Origin: a virus
Lineage: Duplodnaviria; Caudoviricetes
Reading direction: 5' to 3' (one strand)
IMG/VR virus record: IMGVR_UViG_3300031965_000015
Location: 6,530-70,529 of that record
DNA length: 64,000 nucleotides
In this document: positions 1 to 33,235 of the stretch, one piece after another
Position numbering within the stretch: the stretch's first letter is position 1
Layout: each line of letters starts with the position of its first letter
Translations under genes and position numbers: made by a program
Notes under the pieces: generated by a model
Told to the model about the DNA's origin: nothing
Databases searched by the model: none
Seen by the model: the letters and a program-made list of their open reading frames with translations, nothing else

Positions 1-132
1 TATCCTTACTGATTTGCTTTTGCAGATTGAGCATTCTATTTCAGGGGATGAGTTTATTCCTTTAAAATGTTCTTCCGGCGTTTTGTTGTTAGGGCATTCT
101 TTGTTTGTGCATCTGAATTCGTAAAACGGCAT
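1..132 (-). CDS. FmdB-like zinc-ribbon protein (runs off left edge)
   Basis: Manual translation MPFYEFRCTNKECP...ECSICKSKSVRI; MPxYE(Y/F)xC..C pattern. Confidence 0.7.
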   Translation of the reverse strand, partial: MPFYEFRCTNKECPNNKTPEEHFKGINSSPEIECSICKSKSVRI

Positions 133-181
133 TAGTCTATTACCTCCCGAACTCTGATTATTTTTACATTACCTTCATTGT

Positions 182-646
182 TCATTTTCTGAATACTCCA
201 TTTCTTATAGTTTGTGCTATCTTCTTATAGCCTAATTTGAATAAATATTTATCTACCGGTTTCTGCATAGGCAAATTATTTTCACATAAAATAAATTCAG
301 GCTCAAATGTCATAGTCTTTAAAATCTCTAACTCAATCCCATCTACATCAAGATCGAGTAAATCATAATCTCTGTACCCGCTTATATCAATTACCGTATC
401 TCTTATAAATTTATCTCTCGGCCTGATGTACTTGAATCTTCGGATTTCTCTTATATCTATACAAGTTCCACTCCATCCCATTAAGTAAAGCAAAAAAGTG
501 TTTGATGATTTTATTGGCGTTGAACATCCTATATCAAGATAAGTCCCCTTTGGGGGTAATACTTCTCTTAATATCCTGTCCTCTCCTTCCATACTCCCAA
601 TGTTAAGAAATAATTTAACGAGTTTATTGGTAAAGTATTCCAGCAA
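182..646 (-). CDS. FkbM-like SAM-dependent methyltransferase (compact)
   Basis: YLDIGC motif I; DLLDLDVDGIELEIL resembles the FkbM D-x-EG-E motif. Confidence 0.7.
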   Translation of the reverse strand: MLEYFTNKLVKLFLNIGSMEGEDRILREVLPPKGTYLDIGCSTPIKSSNTFLLYLMGWSGTCIDIREIRRFKYIRPRDKFIRDTVIDISGYRDYDLLDLDVDGIELEILKTMTFEPEFILCENNLPMQKPVDKYLFKLGYKKIAQTIRNGVFRK

Positions 647-665
647 CTTTTATTCCCTTCCTGTT

Positions 666-1649
666 TTAATATTCTTGTATCCCTTTTAGGTCTATTGAAA
701 GTCTTACTATCTCCCCATTTAATAATTTTTCTTTATTCTTTTTTATTATACGTTGTATCTCAATGGGAAAGATATCAAAGTGCCCTCCTCTTAATGCGTA
801 ATAATCTAATCCTAATTTTATTGTGTGCCCCTCTGCGATTGCATTTATAAAAGCATCAACAAATTTTGGTTTATATTCAAGTGCGTGTCCGTTTGAATAG
901 TAGTTGCTTACATGAGCATTTGTTGAAAAGTGGAATTCTCCGGCTTCCCTCCAATCAGAATATTGAACTTCGTTTGAATACCACTTACTATATTTGTTTG
1001 ATGGGAAAAATGATAAGCATATCCCGATAATTATCCAGTAAGCTATTCTTACCCAGTTATCGGAATATTTTTTTTCTGTTATCCACAATACCGCTGCCAA
1101 TGCCGGGATGTATAACATTCTTACACCGTAACTCATTGCTCCTAAATCTTCCCTGCTTAAATATATTACTGCACCAATAGCCAATAGCACTAATGAAATT
1201 TTCCATTTATCTTTTTTAAACTTAATCCCGATTACAGATAAAGGGTTTGTAAGAATTCCGGTTATATTAAAGTACCACCATCTCCATCCTAATACCATAA
1301 ACAATCCTATGAATGCGTATGGTCTTGCTATTCTACTCCAGAAAATAAATAGCGGGAATACTGCTGTAAATAAACTTGCCTGTAATTTGTAATTCTTTAC
1401 CGCTATATAAACTGCCGGGATTGTCAGTGTACCTGCAAGTGCAAATATAAATCTTAGCATAAATTCTGATTCATAAAGTCCGAACATATTAACTAAAAAT
1501 ACTGTGGGGTATTCCTGCTTCATTATATAATCTTCTGCAAGGTGAGCAAAGAAAGCCTCATCTATCCATAATGGTTTTTCTCCAAGATCATAGAATCTTA
1601 AAACTCCTGCAATGAGTGTTATTAAAATTATTAGAGCGTGCTTCTTCAT
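666..1649 (-). CDS. GT-C fold membrane glycosyltransferase (PMT/ArnT-like)
   Basis: N-terminal TM followed by LRFYDLGEKPLWIDEA, LRFIFALAGTLTIPAVY and SRIARPYA; multiple TM segments. Confidence 0.75.
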   Translation of the reverse strand: MKKHALIILITLIAGVLRFYDLGEKPLWIDEAFFAHLAEDYIMKQEYPTVFLVNMFGLYESEFMLRFIFALAGTLTIPAVYIAVKNYKLQASLFTAVFPLFIFWSRIARPYAFIGLFMVLGWRWWYFNITGILTNPLSVIGIKFKKDKWKISLVLLAIGAVIYLSREDLGAMSYGVRMLYIPALAAVLWITEKKYSDNWVRIAYWIIIGICLSFFPSNKYSKWYSNEVQYSDWREAGEFHFSTNAHVSNYYSNGHALEYKPKFVDAFINAIAEGHTIKLGLDYYALRGGHFDIFPIEIQRIIKKNKEKLLNGEIVRLSIDLKGIQEY

Positions 1650-2233
1650 TAATTAATACTGAATTTTATTTCTCTTCTTGCCTTTTCAATAGCTTCTCTA
1701 AGATTAGGACTGAAACATTTTTTACACCATAAGGTTTTCTTAATTACAAAGTCGTGCTTAATCATCTTTGCAAACTTCATTGATATGTCCCAGTTATTTT
1801 CTTTATCATCACTTAAATCTTTTGTTGCTATACTTATTAACATATCAAGAGGTCTTTTCATATTTAAAGGTAACTGCATCAGCTTTATTATTTCATCAGG
1901 GATTAATTCGGGTGTGTCGTCAATGTAAGAGTTTATTACTCCGGCTATTTGTTCTGTGGTTATTTCTGATTGAGTGATTATCTTCCCGGTGTTTCCCTTC
2001 CCGTAACACGCTTTACAATTAGTATCGGTTAGTTCCTGCAGCCATATTATTCCCGTCTCTCCTTTGCTTAATCTAAACTCTCTTAGTTTCTGCTCTGTTG
2101 GGAAGTACCATATCCCTTCAATGTTTGTTGGTGAGTTTGGAGGATTGCACATTGATGGTTCAACTAAACAGAATATTATTTTTTTATCTGTTTCATCTTG
2201 AAGGTTTAAAAGATTAGGAATGTTATTAATCAT
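1649..2233 (-). CDS. Hypothetical protein with CxxC pairs
   Basis: ORF track; CKACYGKG and WCKKC. Confidence 0.6.
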   Translation of the reverse strand: MINNIPNLLNLQDETDKKIIFCLVEPSMCNPPNSPTNIEGIWYFPTEQKLREFRLSKGETGIIWLQELTDTNCKACYGKGNTGKIITQSEITTEQIAGVINSYIDDTPELIPDEIIKLMQLPLNMKRPLDMLISIATKDLSDDKENNWDISMKFAKMIKHDFVIKKTLWCKKCFSPNLREAIEKARREIKFSIN

Positions 2234-2453
2234 TATTTTTCTTCCCGATAAACCCTGACCATATCGGTTGTTCAGTCCAATATGCTGTTGCCATCGCTTT
2301 GCCCAGTCTATATCTCCATATAATAATTTTTGCTTTTTCAGATTCGGGTTCTTCGATTAAAATCTTTATCTGATTTCGTAGTTTTTCATTCTCTTTTTTT
2401 AATGATTCATATTCTGGATAAAGAATATTTAATAACCGCCTGAAGAACTTCAT
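2226..2453 (-). CDS. Hypothetical protein
   Basis: ORF track; translationally coupled. Confidence 0.6.
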   Translation of the reverse strand: MKFFRRLLNILYPEYESLKKENEKLRNQIKILIEEPESEKAKIIIWRYRLGKAMATAYWTEQPIWSGFIGKKNND

Positions 2454-2492
2454 TTTATTCCCTCTTTTAAATCTATAAGGTTTGGGATGTTG

Positions 2493-3137
2493 TTAATCAT
2501 TGTTCTTAAAGTCTTTGGTTTTTAACTTAGTTATTATCCTTTCGCCTTTGCGATTAAATAAATCGACTGCTGGTCTGGCGACAATTCCTTCTGCGTTAAA
2601 ATCTCCCCAAGTTGATTTAAACCCCCCTTGAACTTTTTCTATCATTGTGGCGAGTGAACCAAAACCAATTACCGGAACCATTTCTATACCAAAATGTTTT
2701 GCAACATCTTCAACATTCTCCCTTTCAAGCCACCAGTCACCAACCTTCACATCAAATAAAACAAAGTCTTGGTCTTGTCTATAATTACCACCACCTTTTT
2801 GAATCTTAGCACCATAACCTTCCCCATATAAGCAAACCCGTGTTGGCTCAATACCAAATATTTCTGTGAACTTCCCTGCCTGTGTTAAAAACCTATCTTG
2901 TAATTTTTTGACTAACGGGGATGGTATTTGTGCATTATCTGTTTTGCCTCCAAATGTAATTGTGTTACCATCATACATCACCCGGATATTTGTCCCATCC
3001 ACTTTCTCTGTGTAAATCCAATCATTGTTTTGTAAGTAACCAAATTCAGGCAAGGAATATTCTCCCATCAAAAGAGTTTTCATATTTGTAGCGGGGTCTC
3101 TTTTGAAGATTGTTTGTATTTTATGGTATTCTTTCAT
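2493..3137 (-). CDS. RNA ligase (Rnl2-like nucleotidyltransferase domain)
   Basis: Motif I EKVDGTN, YGEGYG, FDV, EGIVARP, ITKLK. Confidence 0.85.
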   Translation of the reverse strand: MKEYHKIQTIFKRDPATNMKTLLMGEYSLPEFGYLQNNDWIYTEKVDGTNIRVMYDGNTITFGGKTDNAQIPSPLVKKLQDRFLTQAGKFTEIFGIEPTRVCLYGEGYGAKIQKGGGNYRQDQDFVLFDVKVGDWWLERENVEDVAKHFGIEMVPVIGFGSLATMIEKVQGGFKSTWGDFNAEGIVARPAVDLFNRKGERIITKLKTKDFKNND

Positions 3138-20375: not shown

Positions 20376-20400
20376 TTATTCCTTTCGGTATAAGTAGTAG

Positions 20401-21087
20401 TTAGCTTGACTGCATTGCCTCTCGTTTCAAGTCTCTCATTTTTTGTTGATAAGCAGTCCAGCTTCCAATCCTTCGCCAATTATAAATATGGTTTAATGCC
20501 CCGTGGTGCATCGCTCCTGAACAATCCTCAACCCCTTCCATCATTGCTTTTTCTAATTCTTTAGCATCTTTGTTTTCAGTGGTTGCAACTCCAAAAATTT
20601 TGGGGCTTGCTTTTACTTCGGGATGTACGTCTGGATGTTCACTCCACCATTTGCATCCTTGAGATACCATTTTCCGGCAAGCTCTTTCATAATCAGAGTG
20701 GAATCCGCTAATCTCTCTCATATCATCCGTCCATTCAAATCCTTCAATTTGCGGTTCTGGATTTATCGGTTCTAATAATCTTCGTGCTTCTTCAACTAAA
20801 TATTCTTCGTGTTGCTTCTCATCCTCTGCACGCTGCTCATCAATAGTCTTGTAATAAACTTCCGCACCATCCAAAAACAACCCTCTCACTGTATAACCAA
20901 TTCCCTTACCGTAAAATCTTGCTTCCATTCCAACTTTTGGTTTTATCGGTGAATCTTCTTTTACTCCGAAGCTCCAACCATCATCACACTTAAACCAACC
21001 GCCTTCGCTAACTTCTGTAATTGTTTTAATTTCAAATTCCAGATCATCTTTAGGAAACATTTTGCACCTTCCTTCTGTGCCCGGCAA
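20401..21087 (-). CDS. Hypothetical protein (cassette 1; start may be MFPKD at 21060)
   Basis: ORF track; stop lies in GTTAGC at 20400. Confidence 0.7.
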   Translation of the reverse strand: MPGTEGRCKMFPKDDLEFEIKTITEVSEGGWFKCDDGWSFGVKEDSPIKPKVGMEARFYGKGIGYTVRGLFLDGAEVYYKTIDEQRAEDEKQHEEYLVEEARRLLEPINPEPQIEGFEWTDDMREISGFHSDYERACRKMVSQGCKWWSEHPDVHPEVKASPKIFGVATTENKDAKELEKAMMEGVEDCSGAMHHGALNHIYNWRRIGSWTAYQQKMRDLKREAMQSS

Positions 21088-21094
21088 TGCAGCA

Positions 21095-21225
21095 AGCTAA
21101 CAAGCTACTGTAGCTGACTTGCTTAAAGTGTCGGGCAATTTTAATTTGTTAATATGTTTAGTTAATAAGTTCATTCTAAATTCGTTTTTAATAACGCAAG
21201 CAGCTAAGTAGCCACTCCGTTATGT
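21095..21225 (+). other. attC-like site A (131 bp)
   Basis: TAAC-AA-GCTACT[G]TAGCTG[A]CTTGC ... GCAAG-CAGCTA-AGTAGC-CACTCC-GTTAT. Confidence 0.85.
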
Positions 21226-21360
21226 AGAAACTTTGGCTCGCTTTTTCAACCAAACTACATTCTTAAATAGTGAAACCCATTCTCCAGTAACATCCTTAAT
21301 TTCACATCCAACATTTAGCGAATAGGCTATTCTCCAGAGCTTCCATTTATACCAAATCAT
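21220..21360 (-). CDS. Small cassette ORF (46 aa, not in ORF track)
   Basis: MIWYKWKLWRIAYSLNVGCEIKDVTGEW...KVST*; stop in the R' box of site A. Confidence 0.6.
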   Translation of the reverse strand: MIWYKWKLWRIAYSLNVGCEIKDVTGEWVSLFKNVVWLKKRAKVST

Positions 21361-21692
21361 TTTTCCTCCTTAAATTGTTCGTCTAAATCTCTCATCCTTG
21401 CGTGCGGGTTAAAATCTGTATTCCTACCGCCAAAGTTCTGCATAACACGTGCTTCAACCGGAAGGCTATTGATGTTCACCCACTTGTTCCCAACTTTAGT
21501 ATAAATTCTTATTCTAAATCCTTCTCCAAAAAAAGGTTCGGCTCCGGCATCCCAACTATGCGGTTCAAGCTGACTGCTAATAGCGTCCCGAATTATTTCT
21601 TCTAATTTTCCGAAAGTATTTATATCTGTTTTGATGGGGAAGCTATAATTACCCCCCTTCATATTTGTTATTGTTATACTGTAAACGTTCAT
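21357..21692 (-). CDS. Cassette ORF starting inside attC B
   Basis: Reads through the attC arm (SSQLEP). Confidence 0.7.
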   Translation of the reverse strand: MNVYSITITNMKGGNYSFPIKTDINTFGKLEEIIRDAISSQLEPHSWDAGAEPFFGEGFRIRIYTKVGNKWVNINSLPVEARVMQNFGGRNTDFNPHARMRDLDEQFKEEK

Positions 21693-21747
21693 AAATTTAT
21701 TTCCTTTCTATTTTTTCCGCAGCAGCTTAACCGCCACAGCGTTATAG
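21550..21747 (+). other. attC-like site B (198 bp)
   Basis: CAAC-TATG-CGGTT[C]AAGCTG[A]CTGC ... GCAG-CAGCTT-AACCG-CCACAGC-GTTAT. Confidence 0.85.
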
Positions 21748-22431
21748 GGACAACCGCATTTGGTTTTCATAATTTTTTAATCTTTGTTTGTAAATGTCAA
21801 TCTATGCCGGATTCAATTCTGCCCCGATGTAACTTCGTTCTAAATGTTTGCAAGCTATGGCAGTTGTTCCTGTCCCCATAAAACCGTCAAAGACAATTTG
21901 CCCTTTGCTTGTAAAGTAATTCAAAATCCTCTGCGTAAGTTTTAATGAAGTTAATCCTGGATGAGGAAATCTTTCTTCTCTAAAAAAATATCCTTCACCC
22001 GGCATTTTCACATCCCACCACAAATCATAAATTGTATTATTCGGTTTAGCTGTTACTAAAAATCCACAGTATTGCCGATAGTAATCTTTGAACGGTGTTC
22101 CGATTGCTCCTTTGCGGACCACAATAAGTTTTGCATCTGGCATCAAATCCCAATAACCTTTTATTAAATCTGCACCCACAAACATTCCAAAATTGTTATT
22201 ACTAATTCGTTTGTATTCTGCTATAAATTCTTTTACCCAATTCCAGTATTCATCGGCGGGCAAATTGTCTTTATACACGCCATAATCCTTCCCTTTATTG
22301 TAAGGTGGATCGCTGAACGCAAAATTAACAGAGCAATCCGGCATACATTTTAGCACTTCCATTAAATCAAAATTGTGCACAATGTCCTGCGGTTGCCCTA
22401 TAACTACGGTTCCAAGTTGACCGCCTTTCAT
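21742..22431 (-). pseudogene. DNA methyltransferase (DPPY, beta class) cassette with in-frame TAG at 21802-21804
   Basis: FSDPPYN, FPHP, FDGFMGTGTT; ...GAELNPA*IDIYKQRLKNYENQMRLSL* continues in frame to the TAA in the R' box of site B. Confidence 0.75.
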
Positions 22432-22631
22432 TTTCTTCCTTCTTGGAGTTTTTCCATTTCTTCAACACATTCCGTTACCATATTGGAAGTTCCACGATCT
22501 ACTTCACCCATATCAATATCATCTTTTATACTTAATAGAACCGATATGACTTTCTCAATAATTTCTTTTTCTTGTTTTTTAGTCATTGTAATTCCCTTTC
22601 CGGCGGCAACTTAAACCGCACAGCGTTATGC
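22398..22631 (+). other. attC-like site C (234 bp)
   Basis: TAAC-TA-CGGTTC[C]AAGTTG[A]CCGCC ... GGCGG-CAACTT-AAACCG-CACAGC-GTTAT. Confidence 0.85.
22428..22586 (-). CDS. 52-aa ORF lying entirely inside the loop of attC C
   Basis: MTKKQEKEIIEKVISVLL...QEGRK*; RBS AAAGGG; ATGA-coupled to the MTase. Confidence 0.6.
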   Translation of the reverse strand: MTKKQEKEIIEKVISVLLSIKDDIDMGEVDRGTSNMVTECVEEMEKLQEGRK

Positions 22632-22639
22632 CGCTTGTC

Positions 22640-22915
22640 TCATATATAGCAGTATCCAGGTTCACAAAGGTCATTGGGTGCGCCCTCATTAAATAATTCT
22701 CCTTGCTTTAATTTTTCTTCATACTTACCAGTGTGTATTCTAAGATTAAAGTTGTATGGCGGAGAAGTCACCACGCACCCGATAGACGGCAAGCTATCAA
22801 TCTTGGTTAGGCAGTCATCGTTGTATAGGGTTATTCCATCTATACTAAACGGCACATAACTCGCAACTCTACCCGAATTATTATCTTGGTCTGTCAATTT
22901 TATTTTTTCATCCAT
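22640..22915 (-). pseudogene. Internally deleted DNA methyltransferase (SPPY) cassette
   Basis: ITLYNDDCL...VVTSPPYN, then jumps to a C-tail-like KLKQGELF; motif I absent. Confidence 0.7.
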
Positions 22916-22984
22916 TAAAATTTATTCTCTAATTTTATTTTGTAAGCAACTACCATAATCGGGTAAGTTGCCATACTGTTATGC
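22854..22984 (+). other. attC-like site D (131 bp)
   Basis: CATAAC-TC-GCAACT[C]TACCCG[A]AT ... AT-CGGGTA-AGTTGC-CATACT-GTTATG. Confidence 0.85.
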
Positions 22985-23389
22985 CTCACGCTGGCTTGCT
23001 TCAATTATTTCAATCAAAGTTTTTGCTTTATTATCCCAATCCTTTTTGTTTAGCTGGTAATATTGTTCTGCGGTCATATTTCTTAGGGATGAATTTCCTA
23101 TACCAACCTCTGCCCCTGTCCACATTATGCTTATTAAATATTTTGCTAATTTCTCTTGTAAGTTCCCGCCAGCTACCACTTCGTTAGGCACAACTGGCGG
23201 TTCAAGCTGACTGCTAACAGCCTTCTGTATTTTTGCAAATTCACTCTTATGTAATTTTACAATTATCTGCCTAACAGCATCATCAATTTTTATGTTTATA
23301 AAATCTCCCTCGTTTTCATCCATTGATGTAACAAGATTTTTCCATACCTCCCAATTCTCAAACCTTCCCTTAAATGTTATTGTTGCCAT
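22979..23389 (-). CDS. Cassette ORF starting inside attC E
   Basis: SSQLEPPVV read-through; stop in the R' box of site D. Confidence 0.7.
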   Translation of the reverse strand: MATITFKGRFENWEVWKNLVTSMDENEGDFINIKIDDAVRQIIVKLHKSEFAKIQKAVSSQLEPPVVPNEVVAGGNLQEKLAKYLISIMWTGAEVGIGNSSLRNMTAEQYYQLNKKDWDNKAKTLIEIIEASQREA

Positions 23390-23444
23390 AATTTATTTTC
23401 CTTTCTTATAATTCCGCAGCAGCTTAACCGCCACAGCGTTATTT
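23188..23444 (+). other. attC-like site E (257 bp)
   Basis: CAAC-TGG-CGGTT[C]AAGCTG[A]CTGC ... GCAG-CAGCTT-AACCG-CCACAGC-GTTAT. Confidence 0.85.
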
Positions 23445-23750
23445 TGACTTACAATATTTTTCAAGTCCATAATCGCCTAACACAAATCTCAAACTTGACG
23501 CTAAAGAATCTTCCATTCTGCCATCATCTTCTGCTTCATCAATTTGGTCTATTGCTCCTTTTATAGCATTCTTCCAATACTCTAATTCACGCAAAATAAC
23601 CAACGGTTCAAGCTGACTGGCTTTGTATAGTCGCATAATTAGCCATTGTTCCAGAGGGCTTGTATCGGTAGTGCCCCTAACAATTTCTCCATTTTCGTCA
23701 GCATATTGTTTTAATATTTTAATAGCAAACTCTACTTTTTTATTCTCCAT
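23439..23750 (-). CDS. Cassette ORF starting inside attC F
   Basis: ASQLEPLVI read-through; stop in the R' box of site E. Confidence 0.7.
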   Translation of the reverse strand: MENKKVEFAIKILKQYADENGEIVRGTTDTSPLEQWLIMRLYKASQLEPLVILRELEYWKNAIKGAIDQIDEAEDDGRMEDSLASSLRFVLGDYGLEKYCKSK

Positions 23751-23807
23751 AAATTTAATCTCCTTTCTTAAAATGTCGCCAGCAGCTTAACCGCAACTGC
23801 GTTATAA
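23594..23807 (+). other. attC-like site F (214 bp)
   Basis: TAAC-CAA-CGGTT[C]AAGCTG[A]CTGGC ... GCCAG-CAGCTT-AACCG-CAACTGC-GTTAT; compensatory change relative to B and E. Confidence 0.85.
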
Positions 23808-24017
23808 TTGGTAGCCCTCTGGATATTTTGTTGATAATGGTCTGTAATTTTCATCAGCAGGTTTACCACATTGCTTGCACTTCATTCTTGGGATAACATT
23901 CTGGTGGAAGTTGGCATCATCATAACCAGTCCCTCTTTCTATATGCCCGCAATGTTCACATTCATAAATTGCCCAGAAATCTCTACGGCTTTGCGATTCA
24001 ATAGTTTTAATTTTCAT
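23802..24017 (-). CDS. Zinc-ribbon protein
   Basis: YECEHCG...KCKQCG; stop in the R' box of site F. Confidence 0.7.
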   Translation of the reverse strand: MKIKTIESQSRRDFWAIYECEHCGHIERGTGYDDANFHQNVIPRMKCKQCGKPADENYRPLSTKYPEGYQL

Positions 24018-28268: not shown

Positions 28269-28571
28269 TTATACGGAAATTACCTTCTTATTTATTGTAG
28301 TGGTTTCTTCTACAACTCTCATCCCTGATTCGCATAACTTTATTGGCTTATCTACGTCATCATAACTCTCTACATTAGCCCAAAATATTTCATCAGAAAA
28401 GATTTCCTGTTTTTGTAGAATAAATTTCCGTATAACGAGTGGCTCAAGTTTACCGACTTGCCTTTTCTCGTTAATTTGTTTTTCTAATTCTCTGGTAAAT
28501 TCATCCATCTCTAAATCTTTATAATCATCATAGTTTAATTCTCTTGGTTCTCCATCAGTAATCCACTCCAT
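28269..28571 (-). CDS. Solo-cassette ORF starting inside degenerate attC G
   Basis: GKLEPLVIRK read-through of the arm. Confidence 0.65.
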   Translation of the reverse strand: MEWITDGEPRELNYDDYKDLEMDEFTRELEKQINEKRQVGKLEPLVIRKFILQKQEIFSDEIFWANVESYDDVDKPIKLCESGMRVVEETTTINKKVISV

Positions 28572-28700
28572 TGTTCTCTCCTTAGTTTAATGATATTGGT
28601 TCAATTATTATGTTACCTTCAAGCGTATAAATATTTAACCACACTATGCTTTCTAAATACATTTTATTTTCCTTTCCGGCAGCTTAGCCATAACATATTT
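28430..28700 (+). other. Degenerate attC-like site G
   Basis: TATAAC-GAGT-GGCT[C]AAGTTT[A]CCG ... CGG-CAGCTT-AGCC; R' box decayed. Confidence 0.6.
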
Positions 28701-32746: not shown

Positions 32747-32925
32747 TTCCCATACCTCTTATTAAGTTTATTTATTCCGCTTTTTAGATTTCTTTTTGTA
32801 AGATGCCCGCTAATATCTTCAATAATTTCTTTTTTTATTTTATCAATATTGCTTTGTAGTTTGTTCCATCTTAGTTCAAAGTTCATAAGCCATATAGTAT
32901 CTTCTTGTTTCATTTTATCCTCCAA
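32743..32925 (-). CDS. Hypothetical protein ending in the repeated module
   Basis: C-terminal LKSGINKLNKRYGK. Confidence 0.55.
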   Translation of the reverse strand: MEDKMKQEDTIWLMNFELRWNKLQSNIDKIKKEIIEDISGHLTKRNLKSGINKLNKRYGK

Positions 32926-33235
32926 ATTGAAATTGTTCCACTTTCAGATAATATTTATTATTCTCTATTTCCACATAAGGGAATAATCTTACCATATCTA
33001 CTTTGCTAAGTGAAAACATCTGATTATAATCTTCTTCTGTTAAATCTTCCGGTAGTTCATCTTCATTTCGCCATTTAACAAAAGCGGTATAGCCAAGCGG
33101 TTCAAGCTGACTGCTAATAGTAAATTCAGATTTAGGGTACACCAAACTAATCTCATCAGTTAATACCAATTCAACTTGTAACGTTTTGTCCATTTCCGAT
33201 TGTGGCTGATAATTATTTATTTTTATTATTATCAT
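32915..33235 (-). CDS. Hypothetical protein containing an attC half-site
   Basis: SSQLEPLGY. Confidence 0.6.
   Translation of the reverse strand: MIIIKINNYQPQSEMDKTLQVELVLTDEISLVYPKSEFTISSQLEPLGYTAFVKWRNEDELPEDLTEEDYNQMFSLSKVDMVRLFPYVEIENNKYYLKVEQFQFGG
33087..33120 (+). other. Orphan attC left arm (R''/L'')
   Basis: GCGGTTCAAGCTGACTGCTAATAG, identical to site B; R'' is TAGC; no right arm found. Confidence 0.6.

Follow-up and report, generated by a model that had tools for sequence, protein, structure and literature searches.

A cluster of six attC-type sites in the early/accessory region of a complete 70.5-kb phage genome is best explained as an integrase-less CALIN whose sites are of the Ignavibacteriota type, and on which an integron integrase (IntI) of the host would act, shuffling accessory genes of the phage; we put the probability of this reading at roughly two in three. 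The four sites that appear oversized are ordinary members of a lineage in which attC loops (the variable terminal structure) naturally measure about 100-170 nt.

Architecture of the six sites

The sites are all co-oriented on the + strand and occupy no more than 2.7 kb (positions 21095-23807 of the window, the whole stretch of 64,000 nucleotides that was analysed), with the attC orientation calibrated on aadA1 in R100 and on Ignavibacteriota arrays. Site length is measured here from the R'' 7-mer to the R' 7-mer.

21095..21225, + strand: site A, 131 bp with a loop of 73 nt, wholly within the 5' untranslated region of the minus-strand gene starting at 21060
21550..21747, + strand: site B, 198 bp with a loop of 140 nt that contains a ribosome site, an ATG (21692) and the first 38 codons of a 111-aa gene
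22398..22631, + strand: site C, 234 bp with degenerate arms and a loop of 176 nt that contains a whole 52-aa ORF and the ATG of a methyltransferase gene
22854..22984, + strand: site D, 131 bp with an arm sequence unlike the others and a loop of 73 nt that contains the ATG (22915) of a 91-aa methyltransferase fragment
23188..23444, + strand: site E, 257 bp with a loop of 199 nt that contains a ribosome site, an ATG (23389) and 58 codons of a 136-aa gene
23594..23807, + strand: site F, 214 bp with a loop of 156 nt that contains a ribosome site, an ATG (23750) and 43 codons of a 103-aa gene

These re-measured lengths agree exactly with the original prediction (131-257 bp overall, and 198, 234, 257 and 214 bp for B, C, E and F), which had also described the sites as oversized relative to the known attC range of 57-141 bp; the same four sites do lie beyond that range, with A and D inside it (PMC5371416). 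Moreover, B, C, E and F are longer than any attC length that has been assayed for recombination, a fact that counts against the recombination reading.

All six sites are built on a common plan: AAC, 2-3 nt, 6 bp, a bulge, 6 bp, a bulged A, 5 bp, the loop, the mirror arm, 6 nt and GTTAT. The L''/L' stems form 16-17 of 17 possible pairs in every case. The arm sequences of sites A (AGCTAAC-AA-GCTACT-G-TAGCTG-A-CTTGC ... GCAAG-CAGCTA-AGTAGC-cactcc-GTTATGT) and D (GCAACT-C-TACCCG-A-ATTAT / ATAAT-CGGGTA-AGTTGC-catact-GTTATGC) are unrelated, and yet both reach 17/17 pairs in the same fold; a short site of another phage contig (L160) aligns with site A at 73% identity over 134 nt. The arms of site B read GCGGTT-C-AAGCTG-A-CTGCT / CGCAG-CAGCTT-AACCGC-cacagc-GTTATAG, and the distal stem CTGGC/GCCAG of site F, in place of CTGCT/AGCAG in B and E, represents a compensatory change. 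Two extrahelical single bases, separated by 6 bp, protrude from the R''/L'' arm; on the top strand the first is C, or G in site A, and the second is A, corresponding to G and T on the bottom strand. The unpaired central spacer is asymmetric in every site, with 2-3 nt on the 5' side and 6 nt on the 3' side.

These structures stand well above the background of the window. GTTAT occurs 107 times on the + strand of the window, and among these occurrences sites A-F form the six strongest arm-to-arm duplexes, with energies from -21 to -30 kcal/mol (-30.4 kcal/mol for site E, the best in the window, and -24.3 kcal/mol for site C with its 16/17 stem pairs), compared to -17.1 for the runner-up. A strict search for the architecture recovered the six sites on the + strand (7 matches, one of which is a register shift of D), none on the - strand and 4 low-score matches in a reversed control. 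Folding with DNA parameters places the arm-to-arm structure in the minimum free energy (MFE) fold of all six sites, the bottom strand being the more stable one in 5 of them. The AAC and GTT triplets occur at fixed spacing in 6/6 sites. The full 7-mers fit RYYYAAC / GTTRRRY only loosely, R' being GTTAT(A/G/T)N, and this departure from the full GTTRRRY consensus counts against the explanation of the sites as integron attC; in bacterial sites of the same lineage, both GTTAGGC and GTTATAC are found as R'. Several other kinds of element were considered as well, namely MITE or transposon ends, RNase III sites, IS200/IS605-type hairpins and PeSL, none of which explains why the sites have these bulges and AAC/GTT boxes and match those of bacterial integrons. 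The earlier identification of the elements as attC sites is borne out by the shared architecture, the arm duplexes and the match of the arms to the attC site of aadA1.

Genes running antisense through the sites

In a conventional cassette, attC is found at the 3' end of a promoterless gene of the same orientation; here, all genes of the array lie on the minus strand, antisense to the attC top strand, with the site at the 5' end of the gene.

20401..21060, - strand: leftmost cassette gene, without a family match, its stop codon TAA lying within GTTAGCT (20400-20406)
21357..21692, - strand: 111-aa orphan cassette gene, arm peptide SSQLEPHSW
21742..22431, - strand: N6/N4 DNA methyltransferase with one in-frame TAG (21802-21804) and a conserved C-terminus that reaches the TAA in R' of site B
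22428..22586, - strand: complete 52-aa ORF wholly within the loop of site C, with its own ribosome site and no family match
22640..22915, - strand: 91-aa N-terminal fragment of a second methyltransferase (phrog_67, 2.3e-8, residues 18-55), cut off 9 nt from R' of site C
22979..23389, - strand: 136-aa orphan cassette gene, arm peptide SSQLEPPVV
23439..23750, - strand: 103-aa orphan cassette gene, arm peptide ASQLEPLVI

The original prediction that the variable loops house ribosome-binding sites and ATG codons holds for the start codons of minus-strand genes in five of the six sites (B-F) and, with respect to a clear ribosome site, for B, C, E and F (AAAGGA-like in B, E and F). The start codon is located 25-39 nt within the loop in B, D, E and F, and translation then continues through the L''/R'' arm, which is read as SSQLEP in B and E, NNSGRV in D and ASQLEP in F, whereas in site C the arm encodes codons 3-9 of the methyltransferase (GGQLGTV); the recurrent peptides SSQLEP, ASQLEP and GGQLGT reported earlier are thereby reproduced in the array genes. 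At the other end of the genes, the preceding reading frame stops on a TAA within the R' box at four sites. Examples are the 103-aa gene (TAA at 23439-23441, in R' of site E), a 71-aa gene (23802-23804, in R' of site F) and the methyltransferase, whose frame, read through the TAG, ends on the TAA at 21742-21744 in R' of site B. Read in this manner, the methyltransferase matches Pfam PF01555 (7.6e-25) up to residue 215 and phrog_67 (2.2e-30) over residues 18-227 of 229, both matches crossing the TAG at codon 210. No attC site was found to the left of the gene at 20401..21060, the array ending on this side with GTTAGCT alone.

The complete 52-aa ORF noted earlier in site C is indeed coupled to the methyltransferase, with its own ribosome site and an ATGA overlap at the methyltransferase start (22431), and it occupies the position where a fused N-terminal 'head' is found in sites B, E and F. 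For the 136-aa protein, no homologue but itself was detected among 5.8 billion proteins, and the homologue searches with the 136-aa and 106-aa proteins, together with a viral locus search, returned only the query itself and one relative; given these nearly empty searches, the cassette genes are considered orphans. A blastn comparison of the region with GenBank phages yielded a single match, the 71-aa gene, which lies outside the array.

Since the stem is present on the mRNA-sense strand, a function at the level of RNA, close to the control of translation by mRNA arms that the original prediction offered as its alternative, has to be weighed. Base pairing between the 5' leader and codons ~36-58 of one and the same mRNA would enclose the start region in a large loop, the likeness to attC being historical. 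Such a structure could tune translation, serve as an RNase III-type processing mark or stabilise the transcript; attC hairpins in mRNA are reported to affect translation of cassettes, and the stem appears in the RNA MFE folds of 5/5 sites tested, with 21-26 arm-arm pairs. However, the segment from the Shine-Dalgarno sequence to the AUG is predicted to be mostly unpaired (mean P(unpaired) 0.47-0.75), so that simple occlusion of the ribosome site is not indicated. Furthermore, a role in RNA has no need of AAC/GTT boxes at stop codons, and these arms also belong to non-coding sites that follow sense genes in bacteria, a setting in which the mRNA would correspond to the other strand. Nor did promoter and terminator scans show any enrichment (6 promoter-like sites against 13 expected) or reveal per-cassette promoters or terminators. 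We therefore consider it improbable that RNA is the level at which these sites primarily act.

An array without an integrase

A CALIN, as defined in IntegronFinder, consists of at least 2 attC sites within 4 kb, with no integron integrase nearby. The present array has six sites within 2.7 kb, and no match to the tyrosine recombinase family PF00589 was detected at E<=1 in the complete 70.5-kb genome, or at E<=0.01 in a second complete relative. A complete integron would have intI and attI beside the array, and no tyrosine recombinase is present here; given the absence of an integrase from the phage, the array is classified as a CALIN. The tyrosine recombinases of two related contigs were examined as candidate integron integrases and set aside as generic Xer-like phage integrases, given scores of only 58-66 bits against a cut-off of 265 bits for integron integrases.

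Sites of the same type in Ignavibacteriota integrons

A search with the two-arm pattern retrieved 29 genome contigs, about half of them from Ignavibacteriota, including the cultured Rosettibacter primus, and the site finder detected at least one site, and up to five, in 17 of these 29 loci, with lengths of 154-228 bp. Most of these bacterial sites are ~185 bp long, and their arms match those of B/E at 19/19 and 16/17 letters. They are non-coding and located behind sense-strand genes, the ~185-bp class being conserved from end to end, and none of the 28 bacterial sites (with the phage-like contig L183 excluded) has a credible antisense ORF of the phage kind. The existence of non-coding sites of 154-228 bp with nearly identical arms indicates that long loops are typical of this lineage, for which the published range of 57-141 bp appears too narrow.

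An integron integrase scoring 390-453 bits is encoded in 5/5 such genomes tested (controls 0/14), and in 3 of the 5 a site of the same architecture follows intI, no more than ~1.5 kb downstream. One complete Ignavibacteriota chromosome had no sites downstream of intI, its array being located elsewhere in the genome. It is the attC type alone that ties the phage to Ignavibacteriota as presumed hosts, and a search by portal protein detected no prophage relative in five candidate-host Ignavibacteriota genomes.

Recurrence and covariation in other phages

The backwards layout, with the gene in the loop and compensatory changes in the arms, recurs in 8 other phage contigs and one phage-like MAG contig, where the long coding form is in the majority and the proteins shared with the present phage are only 23-65% identical. 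The ~28 further sites in other phage contigs have the same architecture and many different arm sequences. In the long phage sites, an ORF of 94-209 aa begins 9-36 nt into the loop in ~18 sites, and a QLEP-type frame runs through ~19 of 22 phage sites. When 15 sites, all in one orientation, were collected by anchoring on invariant letters only, 11.67 of the 13 free stem positions were paired, compared to 7.93 +/- 0.45 when the partners were shuffled (1000 shuffles, with a maximum of 9.73). The original prediction would have been undermined by arms that neither co-occur nor covary in homologues, and the arms do both, although this covariation could stem from the attC pool of the host and need not imply selection in the phage. 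In a viral scan with the left arm alone, only four of the 84 matches extend to the full arm, most of the matches being due to chance or to an unrelated conserved gene.

The recurrence of the antisense layout with compensatory changes points to a maintained design as opposed to a transient state. This bears on the earlier proposal that the sites are intermediates of cassette genesis, in which phage DNA was recently captured in the loop of an attC site of normal size. That proposal could account for the unrelated interiors of the loops of B and E, both ends of which are shared, and for the presence of 131-bp and long sites in one array. Nevertheless, bacterial sites that are non-coding and nearly identical in their arms already measure 154-228 bp, the long coding form prevails across contigs whose proteins have diverged so far, and the content of the loop is always the in-frame 5' end of the adjacent gene and not a random insert. 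Thus, with long loops native to the lineage, genesis intermediates are disfavoured to the point of being very improbable.

All-against-all blastn of the phage arrays revealed only two short attC sites common to different contigs, with no shared cassette, no identical cassette in two contexts and no presence/absence polymorphism at the G/TT junction; accordingly, this comparison provides no direct evidence of recent mobility.

A mirror-image cassette and its possible exchange

In bacterial arrays the loop is non-coding filler behind a sense gene, and in the phage every cassette gene is on the opposite strand. The L' arm and the spacer form the short 5' leader of the phage gene, the ribosome site and the ATG come from the loop, as do the first 2-58 codons, and the L''/R'' arm is translated, usually in one frame, as x-Q-L-E-P-x-V, with V corresponding to the R'' triplet; usually the gene then ends on a TAA supplied by the next R' box, as the complement of its TTA. 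Given that genes end on this TAA, the canonical crossover point (G/TT on the top strand, AA/C on the bottom strand) falls directly after the stop codon at 4/6 sites, and a cassette accordingly comprises a complete gene, or two, together with the signals for translation. We hypothesize that the host IntI acts on the bottom strand (the strand that also has the sense of the mRNA), folding and recombining it when single-stranded DNA is exposed during phage replication, and that phages thereby acquire, shed and rearrange accessory genes, methyltransferases among them. A point against this scheme is that phage genes moved into a bacterial integron would be antisense to the cassette promoter.

The fixed frame through the arms might additionally allow recombination in the conserved arm to exchange N-terminal 'heads', which the loop encodes, and C-terminal 'bodies' without a shift of frame. 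Given one constant frame through the arms, a single set of sites would serve two levels of exchange, that of whole genes and that of heads and bodies. We tentatively suggest, as an extension that is rather doubtful at present, a dedicated two-level mirror-image format kept by Ignavibacteriota phages, in which the host integrase moves genes at R' after the stop codon and recombination in the arm joins heads to bodies in frame. One isolated arm in the window is relevant in this context.

33093..33117, + strand: solo L'' arm inside gene 32915-33235 (TISSQLEPLGY), with a decayed R'' (AAC to AGC) and no partner arm

The product of this gene and that of ORF 1145-1438 of contig L183 are 74% identical from SSQLEP to the C-terminus and unrelated in their loop-encoded N-termini, that is, they share the body and not the head, and at the nucleotide level the match between them breaks off where the arm meets the loop, not at R'. 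Similarly, the likeness of B and E is confined to the leader, the ribosome site and the final 11 residues of the head, with none between those shared loop ends and none in the bodies, and one gene of contig L162 contains two L'' arms. Such mosaics would be expected if the sites were former attC sites, no longer active with an integrase, whose nearly identical arms provide portable homology for homologous recombination by phage or host, combining leaders and heads with different bodies into mosaic accessory genes. In-frame exchange of this kind would need the shared reading frame through the arms, and the phage encodes a NinG/Rap-type endonuclease and Gp157. On the other hand, just one clear head/body pair was found, arm pairs of wholly different sequence keep the fold (sites A and D), and identity alone leaves the two bulges, the AAC/GTT triplets and the asymmetric spacer unexplained. 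Homologous recombination between arms is, moreover, compatible with integrase action and does not exclude it; as a full account of the array we consider it unlikely, and favour sites on which a host integrase can act.

Significance

These observations imply that attC sites can far exceed the textbook 57-141 bp and that the loop can accommodate as many as 58 codons together with a start codon and a ribosome site; attC finders with a size cap would accordingly miss most of such an array. The identity of the arms links the accessory-gene region of a phage to the chromosomal integron of a specific host phylum, which amounts to a concrete route for gene traffic between phages and integrons. In principle, a host integrase could move whole phage genes, and, with the crossover placed after the stop codon at most sites, could swap them without breaking reading frames; the cargo open to such exchange here comprises methyltransferases and orphan genes that may serve counter-defence. 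If the two-level format proves true, it would constitute a natural system of protein-module shuffling built on integron sites and, possibly, a route for phage genes into the bacterial cassette pool.

Comparison with known systems

The PeSL elements of T4-type phages combine an early promoter with a compact stem-loop 5' of small early genes and are associated with modular gene exchange between phages. Compared by description, the present sites are likewise repeated structured elements at the 5' ends of genes, putatively tied to modular exchange; unlike PeSL, they show no promoter enrichment, their stems span 130-260 nt, and they possess attC bulges and AAC/GTT boxes.

The resemblance to class 1 attC sites (aadA1/aadA7, R100) extends to the letters of the arms. 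The aadA1 attC site, a proven recombination site whose sequence was verified at 58/58 positions in plasmid R100, where it directly follows aadA1 in the sense orientation, reads CTAAC-5 nt-GTT-C-AAGCCG-A-C...GCGGCTTAAC-6 nt-GTTAGAT, and the phage sites read AAC-5 nt-GTT-C-AAGCTG-A-C...GCAGCTTAAC-9 nt-GTTAT. Common to both are L'' (GTT-C-AAGCyG-A-C), L' (CrGCTTAAC), the AAC/GTT triplets, the 5 nt from AAC to GTTC and the same two extrahelical bases, 6 bp apart on the same strand. In contrast, the class 1 site is 60 bp long with a loop of few nucleotides, as opposed to phage loops of 73-199 nt, its R' is GTTAGAT instead of GTTAT, and the distance from the L' core to R' is 6 nt instead of 9 nt.

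Integrons have been noted in Ignavibacteriae (PMC9024848), and the sedentary chromosomal integrons of Ignavibacteriota share with the phage nearly identical arms, the same bulges, spacers and R boxes, and long loops, with a true IntI encoded in those genomes; the phage sites differ in keeping the arms only, the loop being recoded as the start of a gene on the other strand.

Phage CALINs as such have already been published, with IntI1 recombining 5/6 phage attC sites tested and methyltransferases as a common cargo of phage cassettes (Qi et al., 2023, Front Microbiol, PMC9892861), the sites in that study having been found with default IntegronFinder/HattCI settings. The present array resembles them in its co-oriented attC sites, in a phage without intI, in the DNA methyltransferase cargo and in the host IntI as the presumed actor. 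It is unlike them in its antisense genes, in the length of 4/6 sites (198-257 bp) and in the coding character of the loop and of one arm; a term search of PMC9892861 found no mention of antisense or opposite gene orientation, and oversized, coding, antisense attC sites were not encountered in the literature searched.

Finally, the layout can be seen as a natural counterpart of engineered attC sites within coding sequences, where synthetic sites have been found to function (Nivina et al., 2020, PMC7439510). In both cases attC structure and reading frame are maintained together, the arm giving rise to a linker-like peptide that is tolerated. Unlike the engineered sites, in which the loops are 3-21 nt long and the whole site is contained in one ORF, the phage sites are natural, have loops of 140-199 nt and span the leader, the start codon and the N-terminus of the encoded protein.

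An attC array in the phage genome

The source record is a complete virus of 70,529 bp with direct terminal repeats. The long ORFs of the window all lie on the minus strand and include those for a P22-type portal, NinG/Rap, a Mom-like protein, Gp157 and several DNA methyltransferases; no tRNA genes were found in the window. The plus strand, between positions 21095 and 23807, carries six sites of one shared plan:

21095-21225 (+): site A, 131 bp
21550-21747 (+): site B, 198 bp
22398-22631 (+): site C, 234 bp
22854-22984 (+): site D, 131 bp
23188-23444 (+): site E, 257 bp
23594-23807 (+): site F, 214 bp

The 5′ side of each site starts with a 7-mer whose last letters are AAC, then runs through 2-3 nt, a 6-bp stem, a bulge (C, but G in site A), a second 6-bp stem, a bulged A and a 4-5-bp stem; after the loop come the three stem segments in mirror order, free of bulges, and then 6 nt and GTTAT. 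The oversized lengths originally noted for B, C, E and F were reproduced exactly. The arm-to-arm duplexes of the six sites (-21 to -30 kcal/mol) are the strongest among the 107 plus-strand GTTAT positions (next best, -17.1), and a strict architecture search of the opposite strand returned 0 sites. In the minimum-energy structures (DNA parameters), the arms pair in all six sites though the loops span 73-199 nt, and the minus (bottom) strand is more stable than the top strand in five of the six. The arm letters of A and D are quite unlike those of the other sites, with the fold unchanged; the same fold despite differing arm sequence is a hallmark of attC sites.

Comparison with the aadA1 attC, whose reference sequence is identical at 58/58 bases in plasmid R100 and present in ~2,500 plasmids, fixes the plus strand as the attC top strand. 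In R100 this site lies directly behind aadA1, in sense orientation and next to intI1. Its arms read GTT-C-AAGCCG-A-C ... GCGGCTTAAC, then 6 nt and GTTAGAT, and those of the phage GTT-C-AAGCTG-A-C ... GCAGCTTAAC, then 9 nt and GTTAT; both thus have the same two extra bases on the same arm, 6 bp apart, and the same 5-nt spacing from the AAC triplet to GTTC. Given that a search of the whole phage genome found no tyrosine recombinase, the array is by definition a CALIN, a cluster of attC sites without an integron integrase.

Two further features lie outside the array:

23802-24017 (-): 71-aa Cys-rich protein (phrog_14808, 6e-35), just beyond the array edge
28436-28691: weak attC-like pair, TGGCT-C-AAGTTT-A-CCGAC / CAGCTTAGCCA

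Phages of Streptococcus, Yersinia and Acinetobacter carry genes with 68-74% nucleotide identity to the Cys-rich gene; for a gene this small, so wide a spread is unusual. The weak pair, earlier listed as the degenerate site G, has a duplex of -15.1 kcal/mol and an R′ without GTTAT, and falls under the architecture threshold.

Genes that start inside the loops

Every array gene is antisense to the attC sites. As originally proposed, the loops house ribosome-binding sites and gene starts, and the arm is translated: sites B, E and F each have a Shine-Dalgarno sequence and ATG 25-27 nt into the loop, the next 38-58 codons fill it, and the L″/R″ (left) arm is translated as SSQLEP or ASQLEP. In site D the ATG is inside the loop and the arm begins 11 codons later, and site A is located entirely within a 5′ leader. 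The loop of site C does enclose a whole ORF, of 52 aa and with its own ribosome site, whose stop overlaps the methyltransferase start (ATGA); the site C arm encodes methyltransferase codons 3-9. A promoter-like TTAACT-16-TAAAAT (21138-21165, -), a weak consensus match in the loop of A upstream of the gene starting at 21060, is the only such match placed sensibly.

At sites A, B, E and F the preceding frame stops on TAA, the complement of the R′ TTA (at B this is the methyltransferase frame with its in-frame TAG read through), and the ORFs that precede C and D end 1-9 nt outside R′. Thus, at most sites the canonical crossover G|TT falls directly behind a stop codon. One cassette therefore amounts to one or two whole genes that carry their own translation start. 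Two methyltransferase genes of the array stand out:

21742-22431 (-): cassette methyltransferase, in-frame TAG at 21802-21804 (codon 210)
22640-22915 (-): another N6/N4 methyltransferase, reduced to a 91-aa N-terminal fragment that has the SPPY motif

When the TAG is translated, codon 210 falls inside both family matches (Pfam, to residue 215; phrog_67, residues 18-227 of 229); the TAG could be a nonsense mutation or a read-through codon. The 91-aa fragment is truncated 9 nt from the site C R′ box, perhaps as the scar that a deletion or an insertion left at a cassette junction. This fragment and the GTTAGCT junction that stands bare at the left array end both fit past recombination at the sites.

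The original prediction offered, as an alternative, control of translation by folded mRNA arms. The stems do form in predicted RNA folds, but the ribosome site is mostly unpaired there, and no per-cassette promoters or terminators were found; an RNA-level role of the stems is a possible, less likely reading.

Recurrence and covariation in other phages

When IMG/VR was scanned with either arm, eight further contigs were found to carry the partner arm 143-233 nt away, against a chance expectation of ~1e-4 for an 11-letter partner within 400 nt. An architecture search yielded ~28 sites across these contigs and L183 (JBBABA010000014.1, a contig from the scan of prokaryotic genomes described below), with nearly uniform orientation, many different arm sequences and bimodal lengths (about 117-127 bp and 182-270 bp). 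Among 15 sites, all in the same orientation and anchored on invariant letters only to avoid circularity, 11.67 of 13 free stem positions are paired, versus 7.93 ± 0.45 with shuffled partners, and several pair types occur at each position; the arms thus covary. In ~18 cases an ORF of 94-209 aa begins 9-36 nt into the loop of a long site, and ~19 of 22 such ORFs use the same arm reading frame, though a second frame is open. The carrier contigs have few proteins in common with the window (23-65% identity), so that the arms are far better conserved than the carrier genomes.

L183, binned into a Thermoplasmata archaeon metagenome-assembled genome, carries five sites of the phage type at positions 1-3100, in whose loops antisense genes begin, and is probably a mis-binned phage contig. 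Two sites of phage type are also found on a Woesearchaeota contig (L196). In another phage contig (L162, G003), a 166-aa gene contains two in-frame L″-type arms (GQLEPLVKQ ... RQLEPPVSK; oriented positions ~9830 and ~10010), a sequence that suggests duplication or fusion at the arms.

Long loops in Ignavibacteriota integrons

In a two-arm pattern scan that covered each prokaryotic species with one genome, 29 matches were obtained versus ~8 expected by chance. Ignavibacteriota, among them the cultured Rosettibacter primus, account for about half of the 29; the site finder reported at least one site in 17 of the 29 loci, with a maximum of five. The bacterial arms (GCGGTT-C-AAGCTG-A-CTGCT / GGCAG-CAGCTT-AACCGC) agree with phage sites B/E at 19/19 and 16/17 letters. 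An integron integrase (390-453 bits; curated cut-off, 265) is encoded in all five genomes tested, no control genome passing the cut-off, and in three of the five a site of the same architecture lies within ~1.5 kb downstream of intI. In Rosettibacter primus, ~8.5 kb of other genes separate intI from the first detected site. The attC type, the sole basis for a host assignment, would place the phage host in this phylum.

The ~185-bp bacterial sites are non-coding, conserved over their whole length and each located behind a sense-strand gene; no credible antisense ORF starts in the loop in any of 28 bacterial sites (the phage-like L183 being left out). The suggestion that phage DNA was captured inside a normal attC is not borne out, since non-coding bacterial sites are already 154-228 bp long (mostly 184-190 bp) and a long loop is thus no sign of such capture. 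Sites of this attC lineage characteristically have a long loop, and the phage-specific feature is the conversion of that loop into the 5′ end of an opposite-strand gene.

The best-supported mechanism is that host IntI would act on the folded bottom strand while the phage DNA is single-stranded, which would let phages acquire, shed and rearrange accessory genes; no product of such recombination was observed at the sites. Exchange within the conserved arm, joining loop-encoded heads to different C-terminal bodies, is suggested by one gene 9 kb from the array:

32915-33235 (-): gene with a solo L″ arm (SSQLEP) at 33093-33117

Its R″ is decayed (AAC to AGC) and the partner arm absent, whereas its L183 homolog retains a complete site. 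The two proteins are 74% identical from SSQLEP to the end but have unrelated loop-encoded N-termini; in the nucleotide alignment, identity is lost abruptly at the arm's inner end. Arm exchange would account for this pair as well as for the common reading frame, but, being based on one pair, it is kept as a rival or additional mechanism alongside IntI action.

Relation to known integrons

In the literature searched, we found no report of attC sites of 180-270 bp, of a natural attC with a coding loop and arm, or of a consistent antisense phage cassette format sharing its arms with the integron of a host phylum; in homolog searches, the cassette proteins are orphans. Integrons in Ignavibacteriae (PMC9024848), attC structures built by design into coding sequence (PMC7439510), and CALINs of virulent phages, often with methyltransferase cargo (PMC9892861), were already known. 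The ~185-bp Ignavibacteriota sites follow the sense-gene-then-site order of classical cassette arrays. In four Ignavibacteriota loci (L199, L200, L201 and L206), intI lies upstream of the attC sites and co-directional with their top strands; in class 1 integrons the arrangement differs, being divergent.
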